Assembly (NCBI GenBank): GCA_022822575.1
Contig: JAJEBJ010000455.1
Coordinates: 1-44,674 of the forward strand
From: Alphaproteobacteria bacterium
GTDB lineage: Bacteria > Pseudomonadota > Alphaproteobacteria > SP197
DNA: 44,674 nt
Direction of reading: 5' to 3'
This document shows positions 4,196 through 44,674 of this stretch, piece by piece. Position 1 is the first letter of the stretch, and each line of letters begins with the position of its first letter. The translations under genes were made by a program, and so were the position numbers. The notes under the pieces were generated by a model. The model was not told where the DNA came from, did no database searches, and worked only from the letters and a program-made list of their open reading frames with translations.

Positions 4196-4222
4196 GCCGG
4201 CCTCCCGTGGATTGCTGGCCTG

Positions 4223-7052: not shown

Positions 7053-7059
7053 GGGCTCC

Positions 7060-7872: not shown

Positions 7873-7897
7873 GACTTTGTCTTGTCCCGGCAGCCCG

Positions 7898-8566
7898 TCA
7901 ATCGACACCAAGCGTGCGCCGGGTCCATGTCTCGAACCTTCTTAGACCGAATGCCGCCGGCAGGGAAATGGCGAGGAAGATGATGCCGACCAGGGTATAG
8001 GGCTCGAGAAAGCGGTAGGTTTCGGAGCCGACAGCATTGGCGGTGTGAAGGAGCTCGGCGACCCCGATCACAGAGAGCATCGGCGTGTCCTTGAAGATAC
8101 CGACAAGATAGTTCCCCATGCCCGGGATGGCGGGTGGCAGCGCCTGGGGAATGATGATCCTGAAGTAGCTCCTCCGTGTTGACAGATTGAGGGCCTTGCA
8201 GGCTTCCCATTGTCCCTTCGGAACGCTGTCGAGACCCGCCCGGTAGACTTCGGAAAGGTACGAGGCGTAGTGCAGGCCGATGGCGATCATGCCGGAGGTC
8301 CAGGGAGAGAGCGTCACGCCCACCTGCGGCCCGACGTAGAAGATGAAGAAGATCTGCAGGACCAGCGGCGTGGAGCGAATGAACTCGACGCATTCGCGTA
8401 TGGCGATCGTGAGAAGGGTGATGGACGTGCGCTGTCCCAGTGCGAAGGCCAGCCCGACCACAAGGGCGATGGCGTAGCCGATCCCGGCGGCGAGCAAGGT
8501 GTTGGTGGTGGCCAGGAGGAGACGCGGCAGAATCTCGAAGGTGAAGTCCCATTTCCAGTCGAACAT
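7898..8566 (-). CDS. ehuD: ABC transporter permease (EhuD-like, His/Glu/Gln/Arg/opine family)
   Basis: 222 aa and multi-pass hydrophobic, with an EAA-type loop (EACKALNLSTRRSYFRIIIPQAL). Confidence 0.8.
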   Translation of the reverse strand: MFDWKWDFTFEILPRLLLATTNTLLAAGIGYAIALVVGLAFALGQRTSITLLTIAIRECVEFIRSTPLVLQIFFIFYVGPQVGVTLSPWTSGMIAIGLHYASYLSEVYRAGLDSVPKGQWEACKALNLSTRRSYFRIIIPQALPPAIPGMGNYLVGIFKDTPMLSVIGVAELLHTANAVGSETYRFLEPYTLVGIIFLAISLPAAFGLRRFETWTRRTLGVD

Positions 8567-8569
8567 GGC

Positions 8570-9247
8570 CTATGCTCCGGGGATCCGGCCCATCTTGCGC
8601 GCCATGAATCTCTCGAGGGCCAGCATCGACGGCGATATCAGCAGTCGTGCCAGGAGGTAGTAGATGATGAGCGCTGTGCCGAAGGCCTCGGCGGAAAGGA
8701 AAGTCGAGCCGTTGATCTGGCGCGCCTCGAACATGAGGTCGGTGACGGAGATGAGCGCCACCAGCGCCGTTCCCTTGAGAAGCTCGATGAAGAGGTTGCC
8801 CCAGGGCGGCAGCATGGCGAGCAGCGCCTGCGGCAGGATGATCCTCGTCATGCGCTTGTAGGGGGAGAGATTGAGCGCGATGGCGACTTCGTACTGGCCG
8901 CGCGGAACCGAAATGATGGCGCCGCGGACGACTTCGGCTCCATAGGCGCCGAGATTCATGCCGACTGCGATGAAGCCCGCCGTGAATTTCTCAAGGGTGA
9001 TGCCGAACAACGGCAGCACGAAGAAGATCCAGAACAGCTGGATAAGGAGGGACGTTCCCCGGAAAATCTCGATGTAGGTGGTGGCAACGGAGCGGACGAG
9101 GACCAGCTTCGAGAGCTTCATCAGTCCCATCAGGAGGGCGATGGCAACCGCCAGCAAGGCGGCGAGCACGGTCTGCTGGACCGTGACGATGGTTCCGTCG
9201 ATGAAGCGCGGGCCGTACTCCACCAGAAAATCGAGGTAGTGTTCCAT
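8570..9247 (-). CDS. ehuC: ABC transporter permease (EhuC-like)
   Basis: 225 aa, paralogous to the downstream permease, with an EAA loop (EVAIALNLSPYKRMTRIILPQAL). Confidence 0.8.
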   Translation of the reverse strand: MEHYLDFLVEYGPRFIDGTIVTVQQTVLAALLAVAIALLMGLMKLSKLVLVRSVATTYIEIFRGTSLLIQLFWIFFVLPLFGITLEKFTAGFIAVGMNLGAYGAEVVRGAIISVPRGQYEVAIALNLSPYKRMTRIILPQALLAMLPPWGNLFIELLKGTALVALISVTDLMFEARQINGSTFLSAEAFGTALIIYYLLARLLISPSMLALERFMARKMGRIPGA

Positions 9248-9270
9248 CAGGAGTGCCCGCCGGTTTCAGA

Positions 9271-9314
9271 ATCCAGGGCCTCCCGACCGGGACAATGATC
9301 GGGAGGCCCTGGAT
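9271..9314 (-). promoter_or_regulatory. intercistronic stem-loop: perfect 16-bp stem with a 12-nt loop, between the binding-protein gene and the first permease gene
   Basis: ATCCAGGGCCTCCCGA (9271-9286) is the exact reverse complement of TCGGGAGGCCCTGGAT (9299-9314). There is no U-run after it on the minus-strand transcript, so it is not a classical intrinsic terminator. Confidence 0.6.
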
Positions 9315-9336
9315 CAAACACGCTGCAATCTGACGG

Positions 9337-10191
9337 TCAGCGGTTGGCGCAGGCATACTCCGTTTTGCCATCGCCTGGCAGTTGGGATGCCGTGTAGTCG
9401 TACTCCGCCACGGCGGCCATCATCGCGTCCGAACCGATCCAGGACGCCAGCGCATCATTGAACGCTGCGACGAAATCGGTGTCCTCGTGACGGAACGCTA
9501 TTCCGACCCAGTTGAAGGTCCATTCCGGGAGAAGGGATGGATCGGTGATGTCGATTTCGCCTTCGCTCTCCGCGGCAAGGGAGCGTGCCGTGAAGAACGT
9601 CACACCGCCGGCGTCGGCGCGGCCGGCGCGGACTGCGGCAAGAATCTCCGTGGGGCCGGGAACCTGCATGATGTTGGAGTCCTCGATGCCCATTCTCTTG
9701 GCGACTTCAACGATGTTGTAGCCTGCTCCGGTGACGATGATCGCTCCCATGTCGCGGATATCGTCGTAGGTCTGGATCCCCTTCGGGTTGCCTGCCGGGA
9801 CGATGAAGGCATCGCCGAACACGCCGATCGGTTCGGAAAACGTCACGTTCTCGCAGCGGCTGGCGAGGATGTACATTCCGCCGGTGATGATATCGAAACG
9901 ATTGGCGTTGAGCCCGGGAATCAGGCCGCCCCAGTCGGTCACCACCGGTTCGATATTGGTGATTCCCATCTCGGTCAGGATGCCGGTGGCGATTGCATTG
10001 ACGAAACCGAGCGGCTCGTTGTCCTCGCCGGGATAGGCCCACGGGACCTCGTTGGCAAAGCCGATGCGCACGGTTTCGCCGGCCATTGCCTTTTCGAGGA
10101 GTGTATGCCCATCCGCCTGGACCTGTGTTGTCCAGGGGGTCAGGACAAGGCTCGCGACGATCGCCGCCCACGATAACTTCATGAACTTCAT
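9337..10191 (-). CDS. ehuB: periplasmic substrate-binding protein of the ABC importer (EhuB-like, ectoine/hydroxyectoine-type)
   Basis: The start is set at MKFMKLSWAAIVASLVLTPWTTQVQA (a signal peptide). The mature part has type-II SBP blocks (LIPGLNANRFDIITGGMY, GNPKGI). The 81-aa upstream extension in the ORF track overlaps the M20 gene and is not protein-like. Confidence 0.8.
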   Translation of the reverse strand: MKFMKLSWAAIVASLVLTPWTTQVQADGHTLLEKAMAGETVRIGFANEVPWAYPGEDNEPLGFVNAIATGILTEMGITNIEPVVTDWGGLIPGLNANRFDIITGGMYILASRCENVTFSEPIGVFGDAFIVPAGNPKGIQTYDDIRDMGAIIVTGAGYNIVEVAKRMGIEDSNIMQVPGPTEILAAVRAGRADAGGVTFFTARSLAAESEGEIDITDPSLLPEWTFNWVGIAFRHEDTDFVAAFNDALASWIGSDAMMAAVAEYDYTASQLPGDGKTEYACANR

Positions 10192-10252
10192 GATGCATGA
10201 TCTCCGGATTGTCTCTTGAAATGTGCTGTACTCTGGCACGGGGTTGCTCCTG

Positions 10253-11422
10253 TCACAAGGAAGACGCCAGCTGGCGTCCCATCTTGCCGAGAAACTCGAG
10301 TCCTTCGGCCAATTCACCGAGTTCGATGTACTCGTCCGGCTTGTGAGCGCGCTCGATGCTGCCGGGTCCGAAGACGATGGTCGAGTACGCCGCTTCGCTG
10401 AAGTACCCGGCGTCCGTGCCGAAGGAGACGACATCCGCGCTGTTGAGCCCCGTCAGGCCCCGGACGAAGTCGATCGCGTCGCCGGCGTGGCGGTCGTCGA
10501 GACCCGGAACACGGGCCTCGATGGTCGTCACGATATCGGCCTCGGGGCAGCGCTCGCGCATTTCCGGAACGAGTTGCCGTTCACAGTAGCGGCGTATGTC
10601 ATCGACGAAATCCATCCCGTCGTCTCCCGGAAGCATGCGGATCTCCCAGTCGAATTCACACCATCCGGACGTGATGTTGCGCGCCGTTCCACCGTTGATC
10701 CTGCCGACATTGAGCGTTGGAAACGGCGGATCGTAGGGCGATTCCGCGACAGGATCGGCGGCGCACCTTTGGGCGTGTTCCTCGATGCGGCTGATGAGGC
10801 GCATGGCGTAGGCGATCGCGTTGACGCCGTTGAAGGGGTTGCACGAATGGGCCTCGAGGCCCGTGACGACGGTATGGAGTTCGATGGCCCCCTTGTGGCC
10901 CGAGACAATCTTCATGGTTGTCGGTTCACCGACGATGACGATGCCGGGGCGGAAGTCCCTCTTCGCCATGTCCCGCAACAGCACGGGCATGCCGAACCCG
11001 CCGATCTCCTCGTCGTACGTGAAGGCAATGTGGATGGGCCGCGAGAGTTCCATCTCCTGCCACGCCGGAACCGATGCCAGGACGCAGGCAAGGAAACCCT
11101 TCATGTCGACCGTACCGCGGCCATGGAGTCGATCACCGATCCGCGTCACTCGGAAGGGATCGGTCTTCCAGTGCTGACCGTCGACAGGCACCACGTCCAT
11201 GTGACCGCACAGCACGACACCTCCGTCGCTCGATGGTCCTATGGTGGCGAAGACGTTGGCCCGCTCCCCAGATTCATCGAAACTCAGCGACGAGGGAATC
11301 CCCCGGACCTCCAGAACGTCCCTGACGATGCCGACGATGTCGTGGTTGGGTTTTCCCGACACGCTCGGGCACGCGACCAGACGGGAAAGAATGTCGACGG
11401 CCGCATCAAGGTTCGCGTTCAC
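10253..11422 (-). CDS. M20-family deacylase (ArgE / acetylornithine deacetylase-like)
   Basis: LSRLVACPSVSG, VVLCGHMDVVP and TYDEEIGG are the M20 metal-binding pattern. I prefer the GTG at 11422 (preceded by GGGCGAGG) over the ATG at 11536, but this start choice is uncertain. Confidence 0.8.
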   Translation of the reverse strand: MNANLDAAVDILSRLVACPSVSGKPNHDIVGIVRDVLEVRGIPSSLSFDESGERANVFATIGPSSDGGVVLCGHMDVVPVDGQHWKTDPFRVTRIGDRLHGRGTVDMKGFLACVLASVPAWQEMELSRPIHIAFTYDEEIGGFGMPVLLRDMAKRDFRPGIVIVGEPTTMKIVSGHKGAIELHTVVTGLEAHSCNPFNGVNAIAYAMRLISRIEEHAQRCAADPVAESPYDPPFPTLNVGRINGGTARNITSGWCEFDWEIRMLPGDDGMDFVDDIRRYCERQLVPEMRERCPEADIVTTIEARVPGLDDRHAGDAIDFVRGLTGLNSADVVSFGTDAGYFSEAAYSTIVFGPGSIERAHKPDEYIELGELAEGLEFLGKMGRQLASSL

Positions 11423-11556
11423 CTGGCCTCGCCCTCCCCGCGCCCGAAAGGCTCGGAGGGTACGCAGTGGGTGAGACCGCTGTAAAGCCCGTTGCCGCGG
11501 GAGGGTGCTTGCAGATAGCGTTGCAACATCGGGCACGGTGTTCCGGAGACGGGTCG

Positions 11557-12345
11557 ATGGCGTGGAACCTCTTGTTCATTTCGATGTTCGGTGAGCGGGA
11601 TCAGTACGATCCCGTGAACTATCGCAGCATCTGTTCCTCGGGCCTCGAAAAGGACTGGATCGTGACATGGCACGCTGATGCTGCCGAACGGTCAGGCTTC
11701 TCGATGACAGCCGTCGACATCTGCCGCGGGGATGTGCTTCCCGAGGCCAGCCTGGTGGATTGCACAATTCTCGGTGGAACGATGCATGTCATCGACGAGA
11801 AGCGCGAATGGCTCGGCAGACTGAAGGACTGGCTCGCCGCCTACCGCGAGACGGCGCGACCCCTGCTCGCGGTCTGCGGCGGCCATCAGCTCCTCTCCAC
11901 GCGCCTGGCAGACGGCCGGCTCGTCGGCCGCCGCTCGGGCACCCTCGCCGGCACCAGCGACATACGCCTGACGGAGCGCGGCAGATCGCATGAGCTGTTC
12001 GCGGGACTCGGGCCGACAGCGCGATTTCACTTTGCCAACTATCTCGATGTCGAACCGTCGCCGGCGCAGCGCGAGCGCGTGCTTGCTGTGGACGATGAAA
12101 GCGAGGGCCTTGCCATCGATCACGGGGGCCACTGGTACAGTACGCAGTTTCATCCTGAATCCCGCAAGGCCACATGGGCGTGCACCTACGGCGCATCGCA
12201 TCCCGAATGGATCGATGCCTACGATGACGAGCATGACGGCGGCGTTGTGATCGACAACTTCCTCAAGCTTGCAGCGTCAGCCCAGACTTCGGCGGGACAG
12301 GCCCGATCAGTCGCGGCGTCCCGTCCCGCGGGCCACGGCGGATGA
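11557..12345 (+). CDS. class-I (type 1) glutamine amidotransferase domain protein
   Basis: The nucleophile elbow LLAVCGGHQLL and a later QFHPE are present. The ATG at 11557 is preceded by GGAG. Confidence 0.8.
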   Translation: MAWNLLFISMFGERDQYDPVNYRSICSSGLEKDWIVTWHADAAERSGFSMTAVDICRGDVLPEASLVDCTILGGTMHVIDEKREWLGRLKDWLAAYRETARPLLAVCGGHQLLSTRLADGRLVGRRSGTLAGTSDIRLTERGRSHELFAGLGPTARFHFANYLDVEPSPAQRERVLAVDDESEGLAIDHGGHWYSTQFHPESRKATWACTYGASHPEWIDAYDDEHDGGVVIDNFLKLAASAQTSAGQARSVAASRPAGHGG

Positions 12346-12777
12346 CTCCGCATGTCCTCCGCATCTTGGTATCAAACCGCAGTCCAAAGGATGTTGCATC
12401 TTCCGGTCCATCATACCTTGTAGCGAGTCACTGGATCGGAACGACCCATTGGGCTTGCGATGCTTCCAGTTTCCGATCCATTCATTCTCGTCACCTGACG
12501 TGATGGACTCATCAAGCCGGTTGAGGTTGGAAAACAGCCTCTCAGCAACTGCGTGCACCCAGACCCCACGTTGTGCGATTGCCGTGTATTCCTTGCGCTT
12601 GTAGTGACGGAGCATCTCGAAACCGACCGTGAAATGCACATCATTTCCGGCGTCGCAGAAGCCTCCATCGCGTCGCCCCTGGCTTCCGTTGGCCTGAGTC
12701 CTGCCGCTGCATTCAAGCAAGCGACAGAATGTCGTGCCCGAAGTTTCCTCGCCATCGCGGTGTTCCGCCCAGGTCAC
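12307..12777 (-). CDS. hypothetical protein (orphan ORF in an AT-richer islet); start and reality uncertain
   Basis: This is the only ORF in 12346-12798 with protein-like composition (…DVHFTVGFEMLRHYKRKEYTAIAQRGVWVHAVAERLFSNLNRLDES…). I recognise no motif. The annotated start is GTG and the first ATG is 54 codons in. The 3' end overlaps the convergent amidotransferase by 39 nt. Confidence 0.3.
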   Translation of the reverse strand: MTWAEHRDGEETSGTTFCRLLECSGRTQANGSQGRRDGGFCDAGNDVHFTVGFEMLRHYKRKEYTAIAQRGVWVHAVAERLFSNLNRLDESITSGDENEWIGNWKHRKPNGSFRSSDSLQGMMDRKMQHPLDCGLIPRCGGHAESSAVARGTGRRD

Positions 12778-12798
12778 TGGGCGACGCAGACGAAGAGG

Positions 12799-13668
12799 TC
12801 AGTTGTCCCAGCGGCGGTGGAGCCACAGCCACTGCTCGGGGTACTCGCGGATCCAGTCTTCGTAGGTTGCGTTGATCGCCCGCAGCATGGCGTGAACGTC
12901 CTTCTCTCCGTCTCCGGTCCTGACGACATTGAGGGGTCTGAAGAGGTGCACGTGAAAGCGTGCCCGAGGTTTGCGCAGGATGCGGATGGGAATGATCGGA
13001 ATGTCGTGCTTGAGCGCAAGTTCGGCGAGGGCCGGGGCGGTCATTGCGTCCCGGCCGAAGAAGGGGACCGGGACCCCTTGCGAGTACTTCTGGTCGCCGA
13101 GGACGGCGATGGCGCCCTTGCGGCGTATGCCCTTCAGCACCAGCTGGGAGCCCTTTCGCCCCTTCGGCGCCCATGTGCCGCCGCACTTGAGACGCCATGA
13201 CTGGATCAGGCGTTCAGCCAGTGGATTGTTCGCCTGGCGGTAGATGATGGTGAGGTCGATGTCCTTCTGGGTGGCGAGAAGGATCCCGAGGTCGAAGCAG
13301 CCGAAATGGGCGCCCATGAAGATCGACGGCAGGTGGGCAAACTCGTCGACGCCCGGATCACGGGTGACGGTGACCCGCGTGCCGCCATAGATATCGATGG
13401 TATGGAGATGCGGGAACTCGGCCACGAGGCGCCCGAAGTTGTCCCACATGCCGGTGACGATGCGCTGCACCTCCTCCGCGGTGATGCCGGGGAAACTCCC
13501 CTCGATATTGCGCCGGGCGATACGGTTGCGCGAGATGGCGAAGCGTCCGGCAAGCCGTCCGAGACATCCACCTAGAGCCGAGGCGTTCTCGATCCCGACG
13601 ATCCGGAAGAGAGCAAATCCCAGCCACAGGAATCCGGCTTCGACGATATCGCGCGGACCCGCCTTCAT
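12799..13668 (-). CDS. lipid A biosynthesis lauroyl/late acyltransferase family protein (LpxL/HtrB-like)
   Basis: It has an N-terminal membrane anchor and an HxxxxD-type region (GAHFGCFD). Its length (289 aa) and position directly after lpxK fit. The start overlaps the lpxK stop. Confidence 0.75.
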   Translation of the reverse strand: MKAGPRDIVEAGFLWLGFALFRIVGIENASALGGCLGRLAGRFAISRNRIARRNIEGSFPGITAEEVQRIVTGMWDNFGRLVAEFPHLHTIDIYGGTRVTVTRDPGVDEFAHLPSIFMGAHFGCFDLGILLATQKDIDLTIIYRQANNPLAERLIQSWRLKCGGTWAPKGRKGSQLVLKGIRRKGAIAVLGDQKYSQGVPVPFFGRDAMTAPALAELALKHDIPIIPIRILRKPRARFHVHLFRPLNVVRTGDGEKDVHAMLRAINATYEDWIREYPEQWLWLHRRWDN

Positions 13669-14642
13669 GACGCGGCAATCCCAACCCGATCGATCAGGGC
13701 ATCGAGGCTACCCTCTTCCCGGAACACCATCGTCACCGGCACCGGCTCGGCAAGGGGGCGCGTCTCCTCATCGAGGCGCACCCAGTCCTTTTCCGTCGTC
13801 ACGAGCCTCGCGCCCAGGGCGTTTGCCTCCTCGAACATCGCTGTCACGGTCATGGGATCATACCGGTGATGATCGGCAAAGCTTCGCGTCTTCACCACGT
13901 CGGCGCCGTGTTCCTCGAGAGTGGCGAAGAACTTGGCCGGTCTGGCGATCCCGGCGAAGGCGAAGAGCGGCAGGCCGTCACCCGGGATGGGACCGGCTTC
14001 GAGGCGGGCGTGGAGGACACACAACCCCTCGCCCGCCAGCATCCCCTCCAGGCCGTGATGGTCATCGCCGACGATGACCACCGTGCCGGCGCGCGACAGC
14101 GCGTCGGCGAGAGGCTCGCGCAGGGGTCCGGCGGGCAGCACCTTCGCGTTGCCGAAGCCGCGTGGACCATCAATGACGATGAAGGAAAGGGTCCGGGCAA
14201 GATGGACATTCTGCAGGCCGTCATCCATGATCAGGATATCGGCCCCGGCCCCGACGGCAGCCGCGGCAGCCCGGGCCCTGTTCCGTGCCACCCAGACGGG
14301 CGCATGGCGCGCCAGCAACAGGGGTTCGTCCCCCACGTCGCGAGACGTGTGGCGCTCCGGATCAACGGTCACCGGCCCGGTGTGGCGACCACCAAATCCG
14401 CGCGACAGGATATGGGGTTGCCAGCCACGGGATGAGAGCCTGTCGGTGAGAGCCCGCGCCGCAGGTGTCTTGCCGCCGCCGCCTACGGTGACATTGCCGA
14501 TACACAGCACAGGTACCGGTGCTCGCCATGGTTGTGCCGCTCGCCTGCGCAGGCGTGTTGCCGCGGTCCACACGCCGGCAATGGGCTGCAGGACCTGTGC
14601 CGTCGGGCCGTCACTTTCCCAGAATGCCGGCTCGCGCATCAT
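13665..14642 (-). CDS. lpxK: tetraacyldisaccharide 4'-kinase
   Basis: PVLCIGNVTVGGGGKTP (P-loop) and a length of 325 aa fit, and it lies between waaA and the late acyltransferase. Confidence 0.9.
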   Translation of the reverse strand: MMREPAFWESDGPTAQVLQPIAGVWTAATRLRRRAAQPWRAPVPVLCIGNVTVGGGGKTPAARALTDRLSSRGWQPHILSRGFGGRHTGPVTVDPERHTSRDVGDEPLLLARHAPVWVARNRARAAAAAVGAGADILIMDDGLQNVHLARTLSFIVIDGPRGFGNAKVLPAGPLREPLADALSRAGTVVIVGDDHHGLEGMLAGEGLCVLHARLEAGPIPGDGLPLFAFAGIARPAKFFATLEEHGADVVKTRSFADHHRYDPMTVTAMFEEANALGARLVTTEKDWVRLDEETRPLAEPVPVTMVFREEGSLDALIDRVGIAAS

Positions 14643-15907
14643 GGCTCTTTCTCGAAGAGCGGTTGCAGCGCCGCGAAGGCCCGGTCGAGTACGCCTGCGG
14701 CATCACCTTCGACGAGAGTTCTAGCCCGTTCACCCATGGTGCGACAGGCCTGTTCATCTCCAAGCAGTCCGGCGATGTGGCGGCGGAGGGAGGTGGCATC
14801 GGAAACCTCAATGGCGCCGCCAGCCGCCACGAGCCGCCGGGCGATGTCGGTAAAGTTCTGCATGTGCGGTCCGTACACGGTTGGCTTTCCCAGCCATGCT
14901 GCCTCACGGGGATTGTGGCCACCGTGATGGAGCATCGACTTGCCGATGAAGACGGCATCACCGAGACCAAGATAGAGACCCATCTCTCCAATACTGTCCC
15001 CGAGGAAGACATCCGTGGCGGAGTCCGGCATGTCCGCCTGTGACCGCCGCGCTATCGTGAGACCGTGCGCCGTTGCCTCCTCGGCAATGCTGTCCGCCCG
15101 CGCCGGATGGCGCGGCACGATGACGGTGAGAAGCCCGTCGATCGTGGTGGCGAGATCGAGGTGAATATCGCAGGCCAGCCGTTCCTCCCCTTCGTGTGTG
15201 CTTGCAGCCAGCCAGACGCGGCGCCCGGCAACGGCGCCTTTCAAACGTGCCAGTGCCTCCGGATCGGCCGGTGGAGGACCCGCTGTCGCCTTGAGGTCGC
15301 CTGTGACCACGACCCGTGTTGCGCCAAGGGCGGTGAAACGTCTGCCTTGCCCTTCGCTGGGGACAAGGACGGTGGTGAAACTGCCCAGAAGTCTTCGGCT
15401 GAAGGCGGGCAGCCGATTCCAGCGGGCGAAGGAGCGATCGGAGAGATGTCCGTTCACGAGCGCGGTGGGGATGTGCCGGTACTGCGCCTCGATGAGGAGA
15501 TTGGGCCACAGTTCTGATTCAACCCAAAGGGCTGCATCCGGTTGCCACCTGTCAAGGAAGCGCGCCACCGCTCCCGGAGTGTCGAAGGGGATGTACTGGT
15601 GAATCCATCCGGGTGGCTGCCGTGACTCCAGAGCCGCGGCAGCCGAGGTCGTCATGGTGGTGAAGAGAACGCCTGCGTCATGGGCGCCGGCCAGTCTCTC
15701 CGCAAGGGGCAGCACGGAGAGCGACTCTCCGACACTGGCGGCATGGATCCACAGGAGAGGCCCATCCGGCCGCGAAGCCGTGCTTCGCCCGAGCCTTTCT
15801 TCCCGGCGCAGCGGGTCCTCCTTGCCGCGCCTGAGGCGCCGCTCGATAAGGAGCGGGGCAAGGGGTTCGAGGAGGGCGGTGGCTTGGCGGTAGAGTCCCT
15901 GGATCAT
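14639..15907 (-). CDS. waaA: 3-deoxy-D-manno-octulosonic acid (Kdo) transferase
   Basis: LLWIHAASVGES near the N-terminus and a GT30-type C-terminal half (GGHNPREAAWLGKPTVYGPHMQNF) are present. It has ATGA overlaps with both neighbours. Confidence 0.9.
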   Translation of the reverse strand: MIQGLYRQATALLEPLAPLLIERRLRRGKEDPLRREERLGRSTASRPDGPLLWIHAASVGESLSVLPLAERLAGAHDAGVLFTTMTTSAAAALESRQPPGWIHQYIPFDTPGAVARFLDRWQPDAALWVESELWPNLLIEAQYRHIPTALVNGHLSDRSFARWNRLPAFSRRLLGSFTTVLVPSEGQGRRFTALGATRVVVTGDLKATAGPPPADPEALARLKGAVAGRRVWLAASTHEGEERLACDIHLDLATTIDGLLTVIVPRHPARADSIAEEATAHGLTIARRSQADMPDSATDVFLGDSIGEMGLYLGLGDAVFIGKSMLHHGGHNPREAAWLGKPTVYGPHMQNFTDIARRLVAAGGAIEVSDATSLRRHIAGLLGDEQACRTMGERARTLVEGDAAGVLDRAFAALQPLFEKEP

Positions 15908-34977: not shown

Positions 34978-35484
34978 CTACCGGCACATTCCCCTGGATC
35001 CTTCGGCGCACACCTTCGCGCCATCCGTCCACGTGGCGCCGGTGAGGGTAGCGCCGGTGAAGTCGACATCCCTCAGAACGGCGCCGGTGAAGTCGACGCC
35101 GGTCAGATCAGCGAAGAGGAACTTGGTGTCCCGGACCTCGACGTGCCGCATGGAGGCCCCCGAAAGGTCGGCCCTGTCGAAGCGTGCGCCGGTGAGCTTC
35201 GCGCCGTCGAATGTGGCGCCGGAAAGATCCGATTCGACGAAGCGCACGCGGTAGCCGTCAATGCGCGAGAAATCGGCATTCCGGAGGTTCGCGTTGCTGA
35301 GCGCCGCGCCGCGCAGGTTGCCACCGGCGAGGACGGCCCCGGGGAAATCGATGCCGGAAAGGTTGCAGCTGCGCCAGTCGACGTTTTCAGCCGGAAGGTC
35401 GTTGCATCCGGCTTCGGCCGCACTTCCTCCGGCCACCGCCAGGAGTGCGATGACGGGAAACAGGGAAAGTGTGCGGCCGGCCAT
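34978..35484 (-). CDS. secreted pentapeptide-repeat protein
   Basis: The signal peptide MAGRTLSLFPVIALLAVAGGSAAEA is followed by continuous A(D/N)LxG-type pentads (ANLRNADFSRI..., ADLSGASM..., ADLTGVDFTGAVLRDVDFTGATLTGA). Confidence 0.8.
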   Translation of the reverse strand: MAGRTLSLFPVIALLAVAGGSAAEAGCNDLPAENVDWRSCNLSGIDFPGAVLAGGNLRGAALSNANLRNADFSRIDGYRVRFVESDLSGATFDGAKLTGARFDRADLSGASMRHVEVRDTKFLFADLTGVDFTGAVLRDVDFTGATLTGATWTDGAKVCAEGSRGMCR

Positions 35485-35540
35485 CTTGGAGCACGGTCTC
35501 CCGGGCACGCCTGACATGCGTGCCCGGGAAGGCCCACTTT

Positions 35541-36953
35541 CTAGATGCTGTAGTACATGTCGAACTCGATGGGATGAGTGGTGGTTTCGAAAGCCATCAC
35601 CTCTTCCCACTTGAGTTCGAGATAGCCGCTGATGAGATCATCGCTGAAGACCTCACCTTTCTTGAGGAAGTCATTGTCCTCCTCGAGGGCGTTCAACGCC
35701 TCGCGCAGGCTGCCCGCTACCGTCGGCACATCCTTGAGTTCCTCGGGCGGCAGATCGTAGAGATTCTTGTCCATCGCATCGCCTGGATGGATACGGTTCT
35801 CGATGCCGTCGAGGCCGGCCATCAGCATGGCCGAGAAGGCAAGGTAGGGATTGGCGGTCGGATCGGGGAAACGGATCTCGACACGCTTGGCCTTCGGTGA
35901 TGTGGCATAGGGAATACGGCAGGACGCAGAACGGTTGCGCGAACTGTAGGCGAGCAGCACCGGCGCCTCGTAACCCGGAACCAGTCTCTTGTAGCTGTTG
36001 GTCGAGGCGTTGGTGAAGGCGTTGAGAGCCTTGGCGTGACGGATGATGCCACCGATGTAGTAGAGCGCCATGTCGGAGAGGTCGGCATAGCGGTTCCCGG
36101 CGAAAAGCGGCTCTCCGTCCATCCAGATGGACTGGTGAACATGCATGCCGGAGCCGTTGTCGTACATCACCGGCTTGGGCATGAAGGTCGCCGTCTTGCC
36201 GTAGCTGTGGGCGACCCGGTGGACGACGTACTTGTACGCCTGCACGTGGTCGGCGCAGGTCAGCAACGAACCGAAGGTCATGCCGAGTTCGTGCTGTGCC
36301 GGTGCCACCTCGTGATGATGCTTGTCGATGGGAAGACCCATTTCTTCCATGGTCGTCAGCATCTCGGAGCGCATGTCGCTCAGGGAATCAATGGGCGGAA
36401 CGGGGAAGTAGCCGCCCTTCTGGCGTGGCCGGTGGGCGAGATTGCCCGTACCTTCGTACTCGGTGTTGTCGTTGTAGGGTCCTTCATCCGAATCGATTTC
36501 GTAGCCCATGGCGTGGGATTCGGTGGTGAAGCGAACGCTGTCGAAGACGAAGAACTCGAGCTCGGGCCCGAAGAAGGCCGTGTCCCCGATGCCGGTGTAC
36601 TGCAGATAGGCTTCCGCCCGTCTCGCCAGCGACCGCGGATCGCGCTCATAGTCCTGTCCTGTCGACGGCTCGTGGATGTCACAGTTCAGGATGAGCGTGG
36701 GCTGCGATTCGAAGGGATCCAGAACCATGGTGGCAGGATCAGGAATGAGGGTCATGTCGGATTCGTTGATGGCCTTCCAGCCGGCGATGGAGGAGCCGTC
36801 GAACATGACACCGTCGGTGAACATGTCTTCGTCAACCATGCGTCTGGACAGCGTGAGATGCTGCCATTTGCCCCTTGGGTCGGTGAATCGTAGGTCGACA
36901 TAGGGGATGTCGTCATCCTCAATACGCTTGATCACACTTTCGGCATCTGACAT
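35541..36953 (-). CDS. glnA: glutamine synthetase, type I
   Basis: 470 aa, with FDGSSI, the ATP-site region [16 protein letters not shown], and NLYDLPPEE (the adenylylation Tyr loop). Confidence 0.95.
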
Positions 36954-36997: not shown

Positions 36998-38699
<1,702 letters not shown>

Positions 38700-38884: not shown

Positions 38885-41800
38885 TCAGGTTGTGTAGACC
38901 AACTCGGGTAGCACGACGTTCCATCTTTCCTGACGGAGTCGCGGCCGGAAGCTCTCTGCTGAGTCGGACCGATAACGCACGGTGATTGCATGGACGCTGC
39001 CTTCAACCAAGGTGGCGCCCTTCGGTGGTTCGTACTTCCGGGCGAGGCAGCCAACAGCAATGCCATGCCGGTCGATGATCAGCACCCGGTTGCCGTCCTG
39101 TCTCAGGCTGATCGGGTCGCCGGCAGCGAGGCTGTCGAGGGCCCGGAGCGCCGGATGACCGGCGGCCATCTGTCCCGCAAAGTCCAGGACGACCTCCGAC
39201 AGGTTGAGTGTCCTGTAGATCTTCCTGCAGTCCGCCACGCCGTCGCCGTTCACTTGCGGGGTGCGATGGGTCACTGCCGGTCCGCCCATGTTGCCGATGA
39301 AGGGATGACGGCTTCCCATCGAAACGACCGCCAGGCTGCGCCGGGCGCGGGTCATCGCGACGTAGTAGAGCCGCCGTTCGGCGTCGATGTCACCACCGTT
39401 CGAATTCCGCCCCCAGCCACCGTCCAGAATGACCACATCGTCGAATTCGAGACCTTTTGCCCGATGCGCCGACAGGAGCAGCAGGCCGGTCTGGCGTTTG
39501 CGGGCATCGCGGCCCCATTCGGCAAGCCACTCGATGACATCCCTGCAGTCGGTCTCGCGGTCACCGAGTTCATGGAGCAGGTCATCGACGCTCTCTCGCA
39601 GGACGGACCACCATGGGCCTGGGGGTTGACGCTCCACCCATCTCGCCATGTCGGCAGCGCGGATGACAGAACTCGAGTGTCGCCTGAGCCAGTCTACAAG
39701 GCTTTGGGTTTCGCGCAGACGCCACACGCTGGGCGGATCGTCGGATCCGGCCTGGACGGAGATGTCATGAGCTTCGCAGTAGCTCCGCACCGGTCCCAAC
39801 AGCCGCCAGTGGCGGGCGATGACCGCCGCTTTCTCCCAGTGCCAGTTGGGGATCTGCTGGGACAGGCGCTCCAGTTCATTCACTGCCAGGACGGCCTGGA
39901 CGGCTTCATCGTCGGGCCCTCGCAGGATCTGCACCCGACCACGCCCGACAGGATCGAGCCGTTCAAGATCGCCCCCTGGACGGTCCTTCTGTCGGCTCTG
40001 GTTCACGACAATGTCGTGACCGGCCTTCATGCGGTCACTGGCCGGTGCGATGAGCATGTTTGCGGCATCAACGATGTTGGCCGTCGACCGGTAGTTCTCG
40101 ACCAGGTGAACCGGGCGCGCCGAATAGTCATTCTCGAAGCGCCGGATGAATGTGACAGACGCGCCCTTGAAGGCGTAGATGTTCTGGTCGTCGTCGCCGA
40201 CGGCAAAGAGACTGAGCCGGCTGTCTTCGTCCTCCACCGATCGCCCGGCAATGGCAGCGATCAGTTCATACTCGTCCGGTCCGATGTCCTGATACTCATC
40301 AACCAGGATCCAGCGATAACCCTCGATTATCGAATCACGCTGTGCCTCGGCCTCGTCACGGGAAAGGCCGTCGCCCCGCAAAAGCGAAACCGCCTGCCGG
40401 AGTATCCTGTCAAAGTCTCCTTGCGAAATGTCGCCGGACTGACCGGCGAAGCTCGCCCCGACCAGGCGCATCGCCAGACCGTGACAGGTGGACACCGTCA
40501 CGCCGCGGGCATCGTCGCCGAGAAGATCGACGAGCCGGCGCCGTATCTCGGTTGCTGCGTGGCGGTTGTAGACGAGGGCGAGGATGCCTCGCGGATCCTG
40601 CCGGCGGACCCGGATCAGGTATGCGATTCGGTGCACCAGGACCCGTGTCTTTCCCGATCCGGGGCCGGCAAGCACGAGAACACTTGTCTGCTCACGATCA
40701 TCGGCGACGATCCGGGCCTGCCGGGCGTTGGCGAGGGACTCGACGATTGCGGCCCAGGATTCCGGAGTGGTCTGGCGCCGGAGCGCCGCAGCGCTACGGG
40801 GCAGCCACTTCTCGACGAACCCCTGCCGGTCGTGAGTAAAATAGTCGTCCATCAGACGCAGTGCATCAGGCATGGATTCCAGCCCACGCTCGGCGTAGGT
40901 CGCAATGATGTGGGTCTGGAGAGTTTGCTCGTCATAGTGGATATGAAGTGGCTGGTAGTCGGTCTCGGTGAACTTCCGGTTGCCCGGGTCGAGACGGATG
41001 GTGATCGCGGGCCGGAAGATCGTGAGTCCCCTGCCGAGAGTGACCACGGCCTGCTCGTGGAGCCAGAGCAGGGCGTGGTCGAGCAGGCTCGAAGGATCGC
41101 TGATCTCCTGTGAGAGCTCGAGGTCGTTTCCAAGCGCGGAGATCAGCGCGCCCAGCGTTGTTGGGACCTGCACGTCCTTCCCGCGGGCCCTGGCGGGTGC
41201 GGTATCGGCAAGCGACGCAAGCAACACGTCGGCGGCCCTGCGTCGGAGCCGGGACGTCAGTGTGAGCTTGTCCCAGGGGCGCTGCAGGCGGAGCGAGAGG
41301 TGCTGGCGATCGATCTTGCGCACCTGAAAGCTGCCGACCCCCTCCGCATCTTCCCGGCCATCCCGGGCGATCCCCCGGATGAGCTTCTCGACGATATCGG
41401 GCCGAACCGTCGCGTGACCGGCGTCGCGCAGCAGCTGAGAAGCGAGTCGGAGGCTGAGGGAGGACACCTCGCCGACTTTCAGGTCGGGCGCGAGTCCTTG
41501 CATCCGGTCAAGCAGTTCGCCTTCCAGTCCGGACACGTCAACGAGGCGCTTGCGGGATGAATCCTCGACGCCGAGATGAATGAAGACGGTGATTGACGTG
41601 TCGTTCGATGCGATCCCCAGTTCCTCGAGAAAACTGAGTGCCTTGCGCAGGCGCGCTGGCGTGAAGCCGGACTCCCCGCAGAGTTCGTCGGTCGAGATGC
41701 CGCGGTCGGGCGGGGAATCGAACAGGCTACGCACCAGCCGGAGAAGCTTCGCCCGGTACCCCGTACTCGCACTGGAGGCTTCGATCCGTTCGCGGGCCTC

Positions 41801-44008
41801 GTCCATCGTCCGGATCTTCAACGAGGATGGGAACACGCGGACGAAGTTCTCGTCGCGCTTCAGGAGAGCTGCCTCTTCCAGCCACGAGACGGCAATCTTC
41901 ACCCGAGTATCGTCGGAATCCCTGTCCCTTCCGAAGTCCCCATCGATGTCTTCCTTGACGATCTCGCCGGGTGTGGCGATGACTTCGCCATCCCGCCTGG
42001 ATCGCCGTGCGAGACGCCGCAGGGACTTCAGGATCGTCGCGATCTCCTTCTTGTCGAGACGCCCGCGCGCCGAGAGACGAAACTGCTTCTCGATGTCGTC
42101 GTTGCAGTAGAGCAGGACGCAGCGGGCGGGCTCGCCATCGCGACCCGCGCGCCCGGCCTCCTGGACATAACTCTCCAGCGAGCCCGGGATGTCAGCATGG
42201 ATGACAAGGCGGATGTCGGGCTTGTCGATGCCCATGCCGAATGCGTTGGTTGCCACGATAATGCGCAGTTCGCCGTCGGTGAACTGCTGCTGGGTCTCCA
42301 GCTTGGCTTCGGGCTTGAGCCCGGCATGGTAATGGGCGGCGGCGTACCCCTTCTCCTTCAGGAATTCTGCGATCCTCTCGGTCGCGCTGCGGGTTGCGCA
42401 ATAGACGATCGCCCCCGACGTGCCATCACCGGGCAGTGCGTGTCTGAGAACTGAAACGATGTCGCCAAGCTTTCCGGTATTGTCCGTTTGAACAACGTCA
42501 AATGAGAGATTGTCACGCTGCGCGCCGCCATCGATCCTCTGGAGATCGATGTCGAGCTCCTCCCGAAAGTGTCCGCATATGTCGTCGATGACGCCGGGCT
42601 TGGCTGTTGCCGTCAGGCAGATCAGTGGAGCGGGTGCGCTGTCGGCGGAGTATTCGCGAACGAACCGCGCGATGTACCGGTAGTCCGGGCGAAAGTCGTG
42701 ACCCCACTTGGAGACGCAATGCGCTTCGTCGACGATCCAGTAACCGACCTCCCGCTGTTCCAGGATCGACCGTACCGAGGGGTTTCTCAGTTGCTCCGGC
42801 GAAACGAGAAGCATGGACGCATCGCCGAGGCGAACCCGGTCGAGCGCATCATGGCGTTCGGGCAGCGACAGGAGACCGTTGACCGTAACGCAGGACGATA
42901 TGCCCTGCCGTTTCAGGCTGGCGACCTGATCGGCCATGAGCGCAACGAGCGGCGAGATGACGACGGTGAGTGCGCCGGTCCGATGATAGGCCGCGAGCGC
43001 CGGAAGCTGATAGCACAGGGATTTGCCGGTCCCGGTCGGAAGGATTCCGAGAACCGGGGTCTTTGCGAGCCCGGCTGCGACGATGGCCTCCTGCAGGGAG
43101 CGGCCGTCACCGCCGGCCGGTTTCGGCCTGAACCCTTCGAAGCCGAACCATTTGCCAAGAAGGCTGACCGGGTCGGCCCAGGTCCGGCACCACGCGCAGT
43201 CAGGGTCGGTGCAGGATGTGTCACGGAGCCTTCGGACGAGTGCGCCGGCTTCGGGAAACTGATGGCGCACCCAAGGCGGCATGACGGAGTCGTCTCCGGC
43301 CACCGAAATCCAGGAAAGGGCGTAGGCAAGAGACCACCCGGTCCGCTCGGCCTCCAGGATCGCCTGTTTCGTCTGGCGGATGCAGGCCCGGTCGGAGAGG
43401 ACATGTCGAATGGCCTTGTTGGCCTCAGGAGCGTCGGGTCTGGGCGCATCTCTCACCGACCGGAAGACTGCGTCGAAGCCCTGCGGGTTCTCACTCGACG
43501 TGATGAGCCAGTGGAGCGCGGCCAGGAGGTCGGGATCGTGTCCTGCAAGCTTGCGCAGTTCGTCAAGCTGGCTTTGCAGGACGGTGAGGACGAGCCTGGA
43601 GTCCTGCTCGGGGTCGCTGGCGTTCCCGGCTTGCAACCGTCCATCCTTGTAGTGCTTGACCAGGCGGTGATAGGGATTGCGGGGAAAGGCGAGCGGATTG
43701 AGCCAGAGCGTGTCAATCGGAGGCTTCGCCAGGATCTGCAGTCCGGCATTCGCCTCCCTCAGATACGGCAGATCGTGCAGGATGACGTTGTGACCCAGCG
43801 CCAAGTCCGCGCCGGAAGAATAGGCATCCAGCGCGAGCAGGGCCTCCGCAAGGTTGCCACCACGATAAGTGCAGGTGACGCTCTCATCCGACCGGACGGC
43901 TGCGAAGCTCAGAATCCGGCCGGTGTTCGGATCGACTTCGAGGTCGACAGAAACGCATCTCGAGACAAGGTCCGCCTTTTCCACTGTGTTCCCGATTCCC
44001 TCCCCCAT
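38885..44008 (-). CDS. 1,707-aa multidomain protein: N-terminal DnaQ-like (DEDD) exonuclease module, RecQ-family SF2 helicase, long helical linker, UvrD/Rep-family SF1 helicase, and an unassigned C-terminal domain
   Basis: This is a single uninterrupted ORF.
- Exonuclease module: VSVDLEVD and GHNVILHD.
- RecQ core: LPTGTGKS (nt 43019-43039), VDEAHCVSKWGHDFRPDY, ATNAFGMGIDKPD and QEAGRAGRDG.
- UvrD core: AGPGSGKT (nt 40646-40666), ILVDEYQD, VGDDDQNIY, ENYRS, SAHRAKGLEFD and YYVAMTRAR. Confidence 0.85.
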   Translation of the reverse strand: MGEGIGNTVEKADLVSRCVSVDLEVDPNTGRILSFAAVRSDESVTCTYRGGNLAEALLALDAYSSGADLALGHNVILHDLPYLREANAGLQILAKPPIDTLWLNPLAFPRNPYHRLVKHYKDGRLQAGNASDPEQDSRLVLTVLQSQLDELRKLAGHDPDLLAALHWLITSSENPQGFDAVFRSVRDAPRPDAPEANKAIRHVLSDRACIRQTKQAILEAERTGWSLAYALSWISVAGDDSVMPPWVRHQFPEAGALVRRLRDTSCTDPDCAWCRTWADPVSLLGKWFGFEGFRPKPAGGDGRSLQEAIVAAGLAKTPVLGILPTGTGKSLCYQLPALAAYHRTGALTVVISPLVALMADQVASLKRQGISSCVTVNGLLSLPERHDALDRVRLGDASMLLVSPEQLRNPSVRSILEQREVGYWIVDEAHCVSKWGHDFRPDYRYIARFVREYSADSAPAPLICLTATAKPGVIDDICGHFREELDIDLQRIDGGAQRDNLSFDVVQTDNTGKLGDIVSVLRHALPGDGTSGAIVYCATRSATERIAEFLKEKGYAAAHYHAGLKPEAKLETQQQFTDGELRIIVATNAFGMGIDKPDIRLVIHADIPGSLESYVQEAGRAGRDGEPARCVLLYCNDDIEKQFRLSARGRLDKKEIATILKSLRRLARRSRRDGEVIATPGEIVKEDIDGDFGRDRDSDDTRVKIAVSWLEEAALLKRDENFVRVFPSSLKIRTMDEARERIEASSASTGYRAKLLRLVRSLFDSPPDRGISTDELCGESGFTPARLRKALSFLEELGIASNDTSITVFIHLGVEDSSRKRLVDVSGLEGELLDRMQGLAPDLKVGEVSSLSLRLASQLLRDAGHATVRPDIVEKLIRGIARDGREDAEGVGSFQVRKIDRQHLSLRLQRPWDKLTLTSRLRRRAADVLLASLADTAPARARGKDVQVPTTLGALISALGNDLELSQEISDPSSLLDHALLWLHEQAVVTLGRGLTIFRPAITIRLDPGNRKFTETDYQPLHIHYDEQTLQTHIIATYAERGLESMPDALRLMDDYFTHDRQGFVEKWLPRSAAALRRQTTPESWAAIVESLANARQARIVADDREQTSVLVLAGPGSGKTRVLVHRIAYLIRVRRQDPRGILALVYNRHAATEIRRRLVDLLGDDARGVTVSTCHGLAMRLVGASFAGQSGDISQGDFDRILRQAVSLLRGDGLSRDEAEAQRDSIIEGYRWILVDEYQDIGPDEYELIAAIAGRSVEDEDSRLSLFAVGDDDQNIYAFKGASVTFIRRFENDYSARPVHLVENYRSTANIVDAANMLIAPASDRMKAGHDIVVNQSRQKDRPGGDLERLDPVGRGRVQILRGPDDEAVQAVLAVNELERLSQQIPNWHWEKAAVIARHWRLLGPVRSYCEAHDISVQAGSDDPPSVWRLRETQSLVDWLRRHSSSVIRAADMARWVERQPPGPWWSVLRESVDDLLHELGDRETDCRDVIEWLAEWGRDARKRQTGLLLLSAHRAKGLEFDDVVILDGGWGRNSNGGDIDAERRLYYVAMTRARRSLAVVSMGSRHPFIGNMGGPAVTHRTPQVNGDGVADCRKIYRTLNLSEVVLDFAGQMAAGHPALRALDSLAAGDPISLRQDGNRVLIIDRHGIAVGCLARKYEPPKGATLVEGSVHAITVRYRSDSAESFRPRLRQERWNVVLPELVYTT

Positions 44009-44238
44009 CAGGAATACGCAACAGACATGCGGATGCCGGCCAGAGCGATGTGCAATCTAGCGGAGATCGGTCTGTCAATGAACATCGGCGCCCGTGCTGC
44101 CAATGATCCACCTGTAGCCTCATGGTTCGTGTCGCCTCGTTGCCTGCATGAACCGTCTCGCGCGGGCCGCCAGCGGCGCAGGTTCCGATGTCGTCACCGG
44201 CTTGAACGCGCCTCGCGAAGGTCCGTGAGGTCACGACG

Positions 44239-44674
44239 ATGACGTCGTTCGAAGGCCAGCCCAGGACAGAAGACGGTCTCCGGAGGGATCTTGCGACGAT
44301 AGGCATCGCTCAGGGGATGACCCTGCTGGTCCACTCCTCGCTGAGTTCGATCGGCTGGGTGGTCGGCGGGGCTCCAACCGTGGTGCGTGCACTCCTGTCC
44401 GCACTCGGGGAAGGCGGTACGTTGGTCATGCCGGCGGCGACGCCTCTTTGCGCGGATCCCGCGACATGGACGAGTCCCCGACTGCCGGAGGCCTGGCTGG
44501 ATGACGTCCGGGAGCATCTTCCGGTCTTCGACGCCCAGACGACTCCGACAACCATGGGCGCCATATGCGAGAGCTTTCGCACCTGGCCTGACACCCTGCG
44601 GAGCACTCACCCTGTCGAGTCCGTCTGTGCCCGCGGCATTGAGGCGCCAGGCATTGTCAGCGAACACCCCCTGG
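44239..44674 (+). CDS. aminoglycoside N(3)-acetyltransferase (AAC(3)/Antibiotic_NAT) family protein, N-terminal 145 codons; continues past the window edge
   Basis: This ORF is not in the supplied track because no stop falls in the window. My translation from the ATG at 44239 (GAGG 8 nt upstream) gives MTSFEGQPRTEDGLRRDLATIGIAQGMTLLVHSSLSSIGWVVGGAPTVVRALLSALGEGGTLVMPAAT..., which is the AAC(3) family N-terminal signature. Confidence 0.7.
   Translation, partial: MTSFEGQPRTEDGLRRDLATIGIAQGMTLLVHSSLSSIGWVVGGAPTVVRALLSALGEGGTLVMPAATPLCADPATWTSPRLPEAWLDDVREHLPVFDAQTTPTTMGAICESFRTWPDTLRSTHPVESVCARGIEAPGIVSEHPL

Follow-up and report, generated by a model that had tools for sequence, protein, structure and literature searches.

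A widespread family of bacterial exonuclease–RecQ–UvrD fusion proteins with a predicted role in defence against invading DNA

Overview

We will describe a giant gene found near one end of contig JAJEBJ010000455.1 (assembly GCA_022822575.1), from an alphaproteobacterium of the SP197 lineage. The whole contig, 44,674 nucleotides (nt) in length, is called the window throughout this text; it is a metagenome-type contig of 44.7 kb with a G+C content of 64%. The gene codes for a single protein chain in which a DEDD-type exonuclease fold is followed by a RecQ-type helicase core and by a UvrD-type helicase core. An earlier note on this DNA, prepared by a model from the letters alone, had proposed that three enzymatic modules are joined in one chain: the open reading frame is intact and real, and the three modules are indeed encoded in it. 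The protein belongs to a real, widespread and uncharacterised family. A full-text literature search found no published description of an exonuclease–RecQ–UvrD fusion. The gene codes for a self-contained helicase-nuclease and is horizontally mobile; with slightly more confidence than doubt we predict that this single gene defends its host against invading DNA, either phage or plasmid.

Distribution of the family

A search of 5.8 billion proteins found over 100 homologues of full length (about 1700 amino acids, aa), with 56–91% identity and the same Pfam architecture. Those which have a name carry the label "RecQ family ATP-dependent DNA helicase". The possibility that the assembly has joined separate recQ and uvrD genes into a chimera, raised in the earlier note, is ruled out by these homologues with the same order of modules, by their presence in closed genomes and plasmids, and by a conservation which is unbroken through the linker between both helicases (alignment of 33 homologues). 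The closed sequences come from cultured strains: Silicimonas algicola (CP034588.1), Cereibacter (pORIO1), Thiothrix (pTfr153) and Allochromatium (pALVIN01). Long shadow reading frames are frequent in DNA with 64% G+C, but a chance frame of this kind is refuted by the same set of homologues, and we give practically no weight to an artefact of either kind.

Residues 1–295 were also searched against 1.84 billion cluster representatives (50% identity). They match 1165 clusters at E ≤ 1e-3, 743 at E ≤ 1e-10 and 205 at E ≤ 1e-30. The domain is found at the N-terminus of the protein in all but 1 of the 150 listed clusters, and full-length cluster representatives have 1700–1890 aa. Representatives of 800–1400 aa were considered as a separate family with the exonuclease and RecQ modules only; they stop at arbitrary points and look truncated, and we have rejected such a family.

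Full-length proteins with 50–57% identity are present in Alphaproteobacteria, Gammaproteobacteria, Betaproteobacteria, Dehalococcoidia (Chloroflexota), Acidobacteriota, Acidimicrobiia (Actinomycetota) and Binatia. Copies with 37–45% identity are found in Pseudomonas, Verrucomicrobiia and Arenicellales. The gene is horizontally mobile. On 22 plasmids there is a copy which extends over 80% or more of the protein, and more distant copies occur on cyanobacterial, Bacteroides, Deinococcus and Aliarcobacter plasmids. When partial matches are also counted there are 241 matching plasmids, 192 of them typed as non-mobilizable. A collection of 50,697 phage records has no full-length copy: its matches are limited to the RecQ core.

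Several plasmid copies from Rhizobium and Nostoc (among H5, H8, H9, H17, H21 and H22) are frameshifted, truncated or interrupted by IS1634. Copies in metagenome-assembled genomes (L011, L012, L017 and L021) are broken too; in their case long-read errors could be the cause. The frequent disruption on plasmids fits a costly accessory gene. The Nostoc plasmid pNPUN02 has three adjacent coding sequences annotated as RecQ, UvrD and 3'-5' exonuclease, which were considered as a "Rosetta stone" with split genes. We have rejected this reading: a single gene has been disrupted there and its pieces abut. The "3'-5' exonuclease" sequence matches the UvrD module in its C-terminal part and is thus no separate gene for a DEDD exonuclease.

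Longer versions, with about 100–290 extra residues, are found in Rhodobacterales: P0046, P0053, P0056 and P0057 in Ruegeria and relatives (1999 aa) and P0043 in Silicimonas (1825 aa). The 1999-aa forms have matches to Pfam zf-dskA_traR and HTH_24; in P0046 the extension is C-terminal.

Structure of the protein

The modules of the protein and their positions are given in Table 1. Both helicase modules are real, as the earlier note had claimed: all the ATPase motifs of the two motors are invariant among the 33 homologues, including the two Walker A lysines (K329 and K1120), the DEAH box at 427–430 and the DEYQD box at 1237–1241.

The first motor belongs to superfamily 2 (SF2). It matches Pfam DEAD at residues 304–472 (9e-29) and Helicase_C at 531–625 (7e-25). 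The NCBIfam model recQ_fam (TIGR00614) gives 303.5 bits on residues 303–646, above its cut-off of 219.8, and thus places this core in the RecQ subfamily. Motif 0 (WFGFxxFR) and the aromatic-rich loop (SKWGHDFRPDY) are present and invariant, and motif VI reads QEAGRAGRD. The earlier note had described a complete RecQ core. The motor core is intact, and it is the only part of RecQ present: RQC, RecQ_Zn_bind and HRDC have no Pfam match at E ≤ 0.1. It is not an orthologue of RecQ either. The models TIGR01389 and PRK11057 give scores of 357 and 259, below their cut-offs of 640.2 and 1015, and the RecQ equivalog model is matched only at positions 4–347 of its 591.

The second motor matches UvrD-helicase (PF00580) from residue 1094 (1.8e-39), AAA_19 at 1097–1281 and UvrD_C (PF13361) at 1509–1562 (4.7e-15). 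Its motifs GPGSGKT, DEYQD, VGDDDQNIY and YVAMTRAR are invariant and place it in the UvrD/Rep/PcrA group of superfamily 1A (SF1A); the core also shows RRLYYVAMTRAR. The models for orthologous UvrD, Rep, PcrA and helicase IV give 136–175 bits, far from their cut-offs (543–1168). In fact all the orthologue-level NCBIfam models (recQ, uvrD, pcrA, rep, helD and DpdF) remain below cut-off.

The linker between both motors is conserved and has no recognisable motif, in agreement with the earlier note: Pfam gives nothing at E ≤ 0.1 over residues 650–1085. When PDB sequences were searched with a profile of the linker, the matches were no better than marginal (E about 1), with helix-turn-helix regulators near residues 747–798. 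Loci with RecQ only, found with tblastn in other phyla, match up to residues ~800–865, which indicates that the first ~150 residues of the linker belong to the RecQ-like module.

The N-terminal part (residues 1–295) has no match to any sequence model: Pfam gives nothing at E ≤ 0.1, and sequence and profile searches of the PDB are not significant. Its AlphaFold2 model, calculated with 54 sequences, is confident (predicted local distance difference test, pLDDT, 88.5; predicted template modelling score, pTM, 0.87). The first half is predicted as beta-beta-beta-alpha-beta-alpha-beta-alpha, with strands at 18–25, 32–38, 46–48, 69–72 and 97–99. They are followed by a disordered loop (119–129), a long helix (133–157) and an all-helical domain which extends to residue 288. 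A Foldseek comparison of this model with the PDB has no match at E ≤ 1e-3; the best one is the S. aureus DinG exonuclease (9ii8_A, E 4e-3, probability 1.0). Nearly all of the 50 top matches hold a DEDD 3'-5' exonuclease domain, among them T7 DNA polymerase, a TREX1 homologue, Pol II, archaeal B-family polymerases, EXD2 and exonuclease X. The E-values are weak yet the matches are concordant, and they support a DEDD fold.

Conservation in this part was studied in 37 divergent full-length representatives together with the window protein (38 sequences). The motifs are D22-x-E24, H73-N74-x4-D79, D99-T-L, P-Y113-H114, K118 and D132-P-x2-D136. The acidic residues D22, E24, D79 and D136 are invariant in all 38, at the positions where the exonuclease motifs had been proposed, and so are H73, D99, L101, K118 and P133. 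The predicted RNase H-like fold and the four invariant acidic residues, a metal-binding tetrad, place the domain in the DEDD superfamily. The usual histidine or tyrosine of motif ExoIII is absent, as already noted: residue 132, three before D136, is Asp or Asn. The domain thus falls outside DEDDh and DEDDy, since the fifth catalytic residue is missing from its usual place. Position 129 is variable, His in part of the family and Asn in the window protein. Conserved candidates for the fifth residue are Y113 (36 of 38), H114 (37 of 38) and K118 (38 of 38); Y113 and H114 lie 22–23 residues upstream of D136. The domain may be catalytically competent.

The helical domain which follows runs on into motif 0 of the RecQ core. 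A cluster of cysteines before this core had been pointed out, and it is confirmed: C266, C271 and C274, together with C209, are invariant in the 38 sequences. They may form a four-cysteine zinc site.

In the C-terminal part, residues 1565–1707 have no Pfam match at E ≤ 0.1 and nothing significant in sequence and profile searches of the PDB. The AlphaFold2 model of residues 1545–1707 is beta-rich, with a pLDDT of 94–98 over residues ~1594–1707. Foldseek finds nothing significant: a probability above 0.5 is found only for K. lactis Rad5 (E 0.1), for the DNA-bound HIRAN domain of HLTF (E 0.17 and 0.36) and for part of Hachiman HamB; the TM-scores of the Rad5 and HLTF matches are at most 0.4. The Pfam HIRAN model (PF08797) has no match in 19 C-terminal domains at E ≤ 5. 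This domain is the fastest-evolving region of the protein and diverges much faster than the motors. In cross-phylum homologues the RecQ core has 60–68% identity and the UvrD core 57–63%; the N-terminal domain and the linker have 44–53% and the last 140 residues 27–36%. Its alignment has no catalytic signature and just four invariant residues (Leu, Gly, Asp and Trp, one of each). Such a fast divergence is as expected of a specificity or sensor module.

A stand-alone helicase of 684 aa from a Sphaerotilus plasmid aligns with residues 1088–1704 with 35% identity. This alignment includes the C-terminal domain, which indicates that the UvrD core and the C-terminal domain are one evolutionary unit, and that the domain is older than the fusion. 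The gene of this helicase (L098, Sphaerotilus sulfidivorans, 8761–10815) is found beside dbpA, among transport genes.

Genes surrounding the homologues

We have sampled about 35 loci with homologues of the giant gene. In the majority of them, genes for defence, toxin-antitoxin systems or mobile elements lie no further than 10 kb away, a figure which is a tally with no background rate. As a tally, these recurrent neighbours resemble a classic defence-island signature. Sinorhizobium medicae has BREX genes (PglX, PglZ, BrxL), Silicimonas algicola McrB-McrC and HNH-HIT, Nostoc an N6-methylase with a helicase, Thiothrix a type I-D CRISPR-Cas system and Allochromatium a type I restriction-modification system with HNH. 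The neighbours are RES (two copies) and BrnT in Cereibacter, HipA in Rhizobium, and the insertion sequences (IS) IS6 and IS630 in Microvirga. One metagenome contig (L089) has a type III restriction subunit together with an integrase and a resolvase, another (L091) has RES-Xre, PIN and SNF2. In some cases the contact is close: PDC-S37 is directly upstream in Tritonibacter (L005) and HmaC in Ca. Methylophosphatis (L014), HsdR is upstream in a metagenome-assembled genome of Dehalococcoidia (L020), and ZorABCD is immediately downstream in one of Alphaproteobacteria (L026). Pooled scans of 20 unannotated loci also gave DRT9, a second Hma, type IV restriction enzymes, PDC-S01 and HEC-06.

Two of these loci have additional features. 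In Tritonibacter scottomollicae (L005) the PDC-S37-type protein has 1963 aa (3969–9860, PADLOC E = 0), and its gene overlaps the beginning of the homologue (9857–15547) by 4 nt; the two genes may be co-transcribed. The matches to DUF4011 and to the MTES_1575 restriction endonuclease family of Pfam, found in the pooled scan, probably belong to this protein. The homologue itself has a C-terminal extension of ~150 aa. In contig L089 a pair of genes in the integrase/resolvase island (4108–6668) codes for a HATPase_c-like protein and a TOP6A/Spo11-type Toprim protein; this pair may be a defence system itself.

The giant gene had been described as isolated, and this is a general feature: no neighbour family has a consistent position among the open reading frames within 10 kb in 24 loci. 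Small flanking reading frames are not conserved either in the translated 900-bp flanks of 32 loci, where the only matches were within the same lineage, apart from H-NS in two loci. Reading frames of 932 aa downstream of three homologues (L005, L007 and L009) were considered as a conserved partner; they are unrelated proteins. LexA boxes of the alpha- or gammaproteobacterial type are absent upstream of the gene in 35 of 36 loci. The two H-NS genes lie 0.8–1.2 kb upstream, in Silicimonas (L087, 7897–8226) and Cereibacter (L094, 7812–8210), and have 42% mutual identity; they may correspond to xenogeneic silencing of acquired DNA.

Relatives with 79–83% identity have contexts which are unrelated; three were examined, and two of these include integrases or transposases. 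The contexts are a molybdopterin oxidoreductase locus, once with transposases downstream, and an island where two integrases are accompanied by an Eco57I-type enzyme and IS1595. The earlier note had suggested synteny as a check, since strict conservation would speak against its idea of a defence gene: synteny is not conserved across lineages.

Possible function

RecQ, UvrD and DEDD exonucleases all have 3'-5' polarity, and the mechanism that we propose is based on it. The enzyme would load onto DNA with a free 3' end, a nick, a gap or a fork, structures which are abundant in foreign DNA when it enters the cell or replicates. The variable C-terminal domain could be the recognition module, holding the 3' end. 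The two 3'-5' motors would unwind and clear the DNA, and the N-terminal 3'-5' exonuclease would degrade the exposed strand from its 3' end; replication of the foreign DNA would be aborted. In its full form, an unnamed and widespread one-gene system against phages or plasmids, with a possibly HIRAN-like end capture, two motors and a non-canonical DEDD exonuclease, the proposal is tentative and we would put it somewhat below an even chance.

The idea of a defence or anti-plasmid gene had already been put forward in the earlier note. It gains strong support, by association, from the neighbourhoods of the homologues, from the plasmids and from the integrases and IS elements; in the lineage of the window, the locus is a stable housekeeping neighbourhood and not a defence island. 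Several points weigh against the proposal. The window and its nearest relatives house the gene among housekeeping genes, with a conserved synteny on the 3' side, and certain further loci have metabolic genes only. The link with defence genes is a tally on ~35 loci with no background frequency, and thus not a statistic. The HIRAN-like reading is only a lead, with Foldseek E-values of 0.1–0.9 and no Pfam match. Exonuclease activity is not certain, given that the protein lacks the canonical fifth residue of DEDD enzymes. Finally, the mechanism leaves the cooperation of two motors, both expected to be 3'-5', unexplained.

The gene could also code for an accessory enzyme of DNA repair or fork processing, a bacterial analogue of WRN or of exonuclease-DinG which would work on stalled forks, gaps and recombination intermediates of the host. 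Its UvrD-type motor would strip protein from the DNA, and the gene would have spread horizontally as other accessory repair genes have done. We consider such a role rather unlikely, about one chance in four. An exonuclease joined to RecQ is the layout of WRN, the N-terminal domain comes structurally closest to the exonuclease of the genome-maintenance protein DinG from S. aureus, and the weak top matches of the C-terminal domain are the HIRAN domains of the fork remodellers Rad5 and HLTF. The copies in the window and in its closest relatives are stable beside core genes, and the stand-alone relative with the UvrD core and the C-terminal domain lies among metabolic genes beside dbpA. A repair enzyme would not, however, be easily reconciled with a patchy distribution across phyla, with many plasmid-borne copies, with frequent pseudogenisation and with a repeated adjacency to restriction, BREX, Zorya, Hma, CRISPR and toxin-antitoxin genes; upstream SOS boxes are absent in 35 of 36 loci. 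The fork-processing alternative of the earlier note is therefore weakened by distribution, neighbours and lack of SOS boxes, while the analogies with WRN, DinG and HIRAN and the housekeeping context still speak for it.

A role in the service of the mobile elements which carry the gene, as a factor for maintenance, replication or establishment of plasmids and islands or as an anti-defence factor, appears to us improbable. It would explain the 22 large plasmids with full-length copies and the flanking IS elements, integrases and resolvases; on a Deinococcus plasmid a distant homologue adjoins the gene of the replication initiator. Nevertheless the gene is not tied in its position to genes for replication, partition or transfer, and many copies on chromosomes are found where no element can be recognised. 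Of the 241 matching plasmids, partial matches included, 192 are typed as non-mobilizable, and full-length copies are absent from the phage records. Defence islands commonly ride on mobile elements, and for this reason a mobile-element context discriminates poorly between such a role and defence.

If the giant gene is a defence gene, it represents a widespread single-gene system which current defence catalogues do not recognise. It would show a rare natural pairing of SF2 and SF1 motors on one polypeptide with an exonuclease, and it would offer a compact model for the distinction of foreign replication intermediates from host DNA. Should it prove to be a repair enzyme, bacteria would have a counterpart of the WRN-like exonuclease-helicases, with an extra motor. 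In either case the catalytic residues for clean mutant tests have been identified.

The giant gene in the window

Most close homologues have 1699 aa, a length which corresponds to a GTG start at codon 9. In the 90%-identity cluster of the window protein this is the case for three of the four other members. A GGAGG sequence is found 14 nt upstream of this GTG, a long spacing. In the region 43982–44008, codons 1–8 are thus probably untranslated.

Table 1. Features of the giant gene and of its surroundings in the window (residue n begins at position 44008-3(n-1))
Feature	Position	Strand	Basis or remarks
Whole open reading frame	38885..44008	-	1707 codons and stop; full-length homologues
Codon 9 (GTG), likely true start	43982..43984	-	Homologue lengths and upstream sequence
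DEDD-type (DnaQ-like) 3'-5' exonuclease fold (predicted), residues ~17–157	43538..43960	-	AlphaFold2, Foldseek, conservation
All-helical domain, residues ~158–295, with C209, C266, C271 and C274	43124..43537	-	AlphaFold2 secondary structure, conservation
RecQ-type SF2 helicase core, residues ~296–650	42059..43123	-	Pfam, NCBIfam, alignment
Linker, residues ~651–1085, conserved	40754..42058	-	No Pfam match; ~435 residues
UvrD-type SF1A helicase core, residues ~1086–1565	39314..40753	-	Pfam, NCBIfam, alignment
C-terminal domain; folded beta-rich part, residues ~1594–1707	38888..39313	-	AlphaFold2, Foldseek
Intergenic region between the giant gene and the divergent AAC(3) gene	44009..44238	.	230 bp
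AAC(3) (aminoglycoside 3-N-acetyltransferase) gene, 5' part	44239..44674	+	Divergent neighbour, outside the system
Class I/II aminotransferase gene	37530..38699	+	Convergent neighbour, outside the system

The surroundings are those described in the earlier note, with a convergent aminotransferase gene, a divergent AAC(3) gene and, past the aminotransferase, glnB and glnA on the minus strand. The 230-bp region upstream of the giant gene has neither a sigma-70 consensus nor a LexA box, and a scan for promoters and terminators around the gene was uninformative. A gene for a pentapeptide-repeat protein adjoins glnA (34978–35610, minus strand). The pentapeptide-repeat and AAC(3) families both include determinants of antibiotic resistance.

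The two closest loci, L001 (91% protein identity) and L100 (at least 90%), keep the side with aminotransferase, glnB, glnA and, further on, rplM and rpsI. In the lineage of the window the gene appears to be settled beside glnBA and vertically inherited. The other side is different: in both relatives a metabolic block of ~9 kb lies between the AAC(3) gene and the giant gene (741–10001 in L001, 388–10001 in L100), with SBP_bac_5, aconitase, ADH, aldehyde dehydrogenase, MTTB and PhyH. The presence of this block in both relatives, as compared with 230 bp in the window, indicates a recent insertion or deletion at this junction.

Comparison with known systems

The order of the first two modules is that of WRN, which also has an N-terminal 3'-5' exonuclease of the DEDD superfamily followed by a RecQ-type motor on the same chain. 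However WRN is of the DEDDy type, has RQC and HRDC domains and lacks an SF1 motor. The window protein has D132 at the position of the tyrosine, lacks RQC and HRDC, has a four-cysteine domain before the motor and carries an appended UvrD core and beta domain. The WRN-type arrangement of the earlier note therefore stands as far as the order of exonuclease and RecQ is concerned, but the protein is not a member of this group: RQC, HRDC and the DEDDy tyrosine are absent. The resemblance is most likely convergent. A bacterial fusion of an N-terminal DEDD exonuclease with an SF2 helicase is also known in the exonuclease-DinG of S. aureus and B. subtilis (PDB 9ii8; PMC12345164, PMC12525004). It differs by its XPD-like 5'-3' helicase, its length of ~900 aa and the lack of a second motor, and it is a conserved genome-maintenance gene. 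HLTF and Rad5 have a HIRAN domain beside the motor which binds free 3' DNA ends, and a weak fold match to the C-terminal domain; they are SNF2 translocases with RING domains.

RecBCD and AddAB are two-motor helicase-nucleases as well, which process DNA ends and destroy foreign linear DNA. RecBCD has several subunits, a PD-(D/E)xK nuclease and two SF1 motors which run in opposite directions, whereas the giant protein is a single chain with an SF2 and an SF1A motor, both expected to be 3'-5', and a DEDD exonuclease.

The earlier note did not recognise the architecture as a named defence system, and no PADLOC model (PADLOC-DB v2.0.0) matches the protein in its full length. The best match has 390 bits and covers residues 282–667 only; neighbour genes in other loci score above 1000 bits on their own PADLOC models. 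At the level of domains the best matches are DpdF (3.5e-117) and PsyrT/RqlH (8e-91) on residues 282–667, and GajB (1e-51) on the UvrD part. The protein is not DpdF: the NCBIfam score is 207.9, with a cut-off of 550, and the window has no dpd genes. Nor is it a component of PsyrTA or of Gabija; the GajB matches are domain-level (residues 1195–1420) and no neighbour is conserved in 24 loci. The partners of these proteins (the dpd cluster, PsyrA and GajA) are absent from the window and are not conserved at the other loci.

Nhi, Hna, Hhe, PDC-S37, DdmD and ZorD are also large proteins, alone or nearly so, which join a motor and a nuclease and are found in defence islands or mobile elements. Several of them directly adjoin homologues of the giant gene. 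They have a single motor and endonucleases of the PD-(D/E)xK, Vsr, HNH or Mrr type, while the giant protein has two motors and a DEDD exonuclease. By analogy, its nearest functional kind would be the one-protein helicase-nuclease defence gene.

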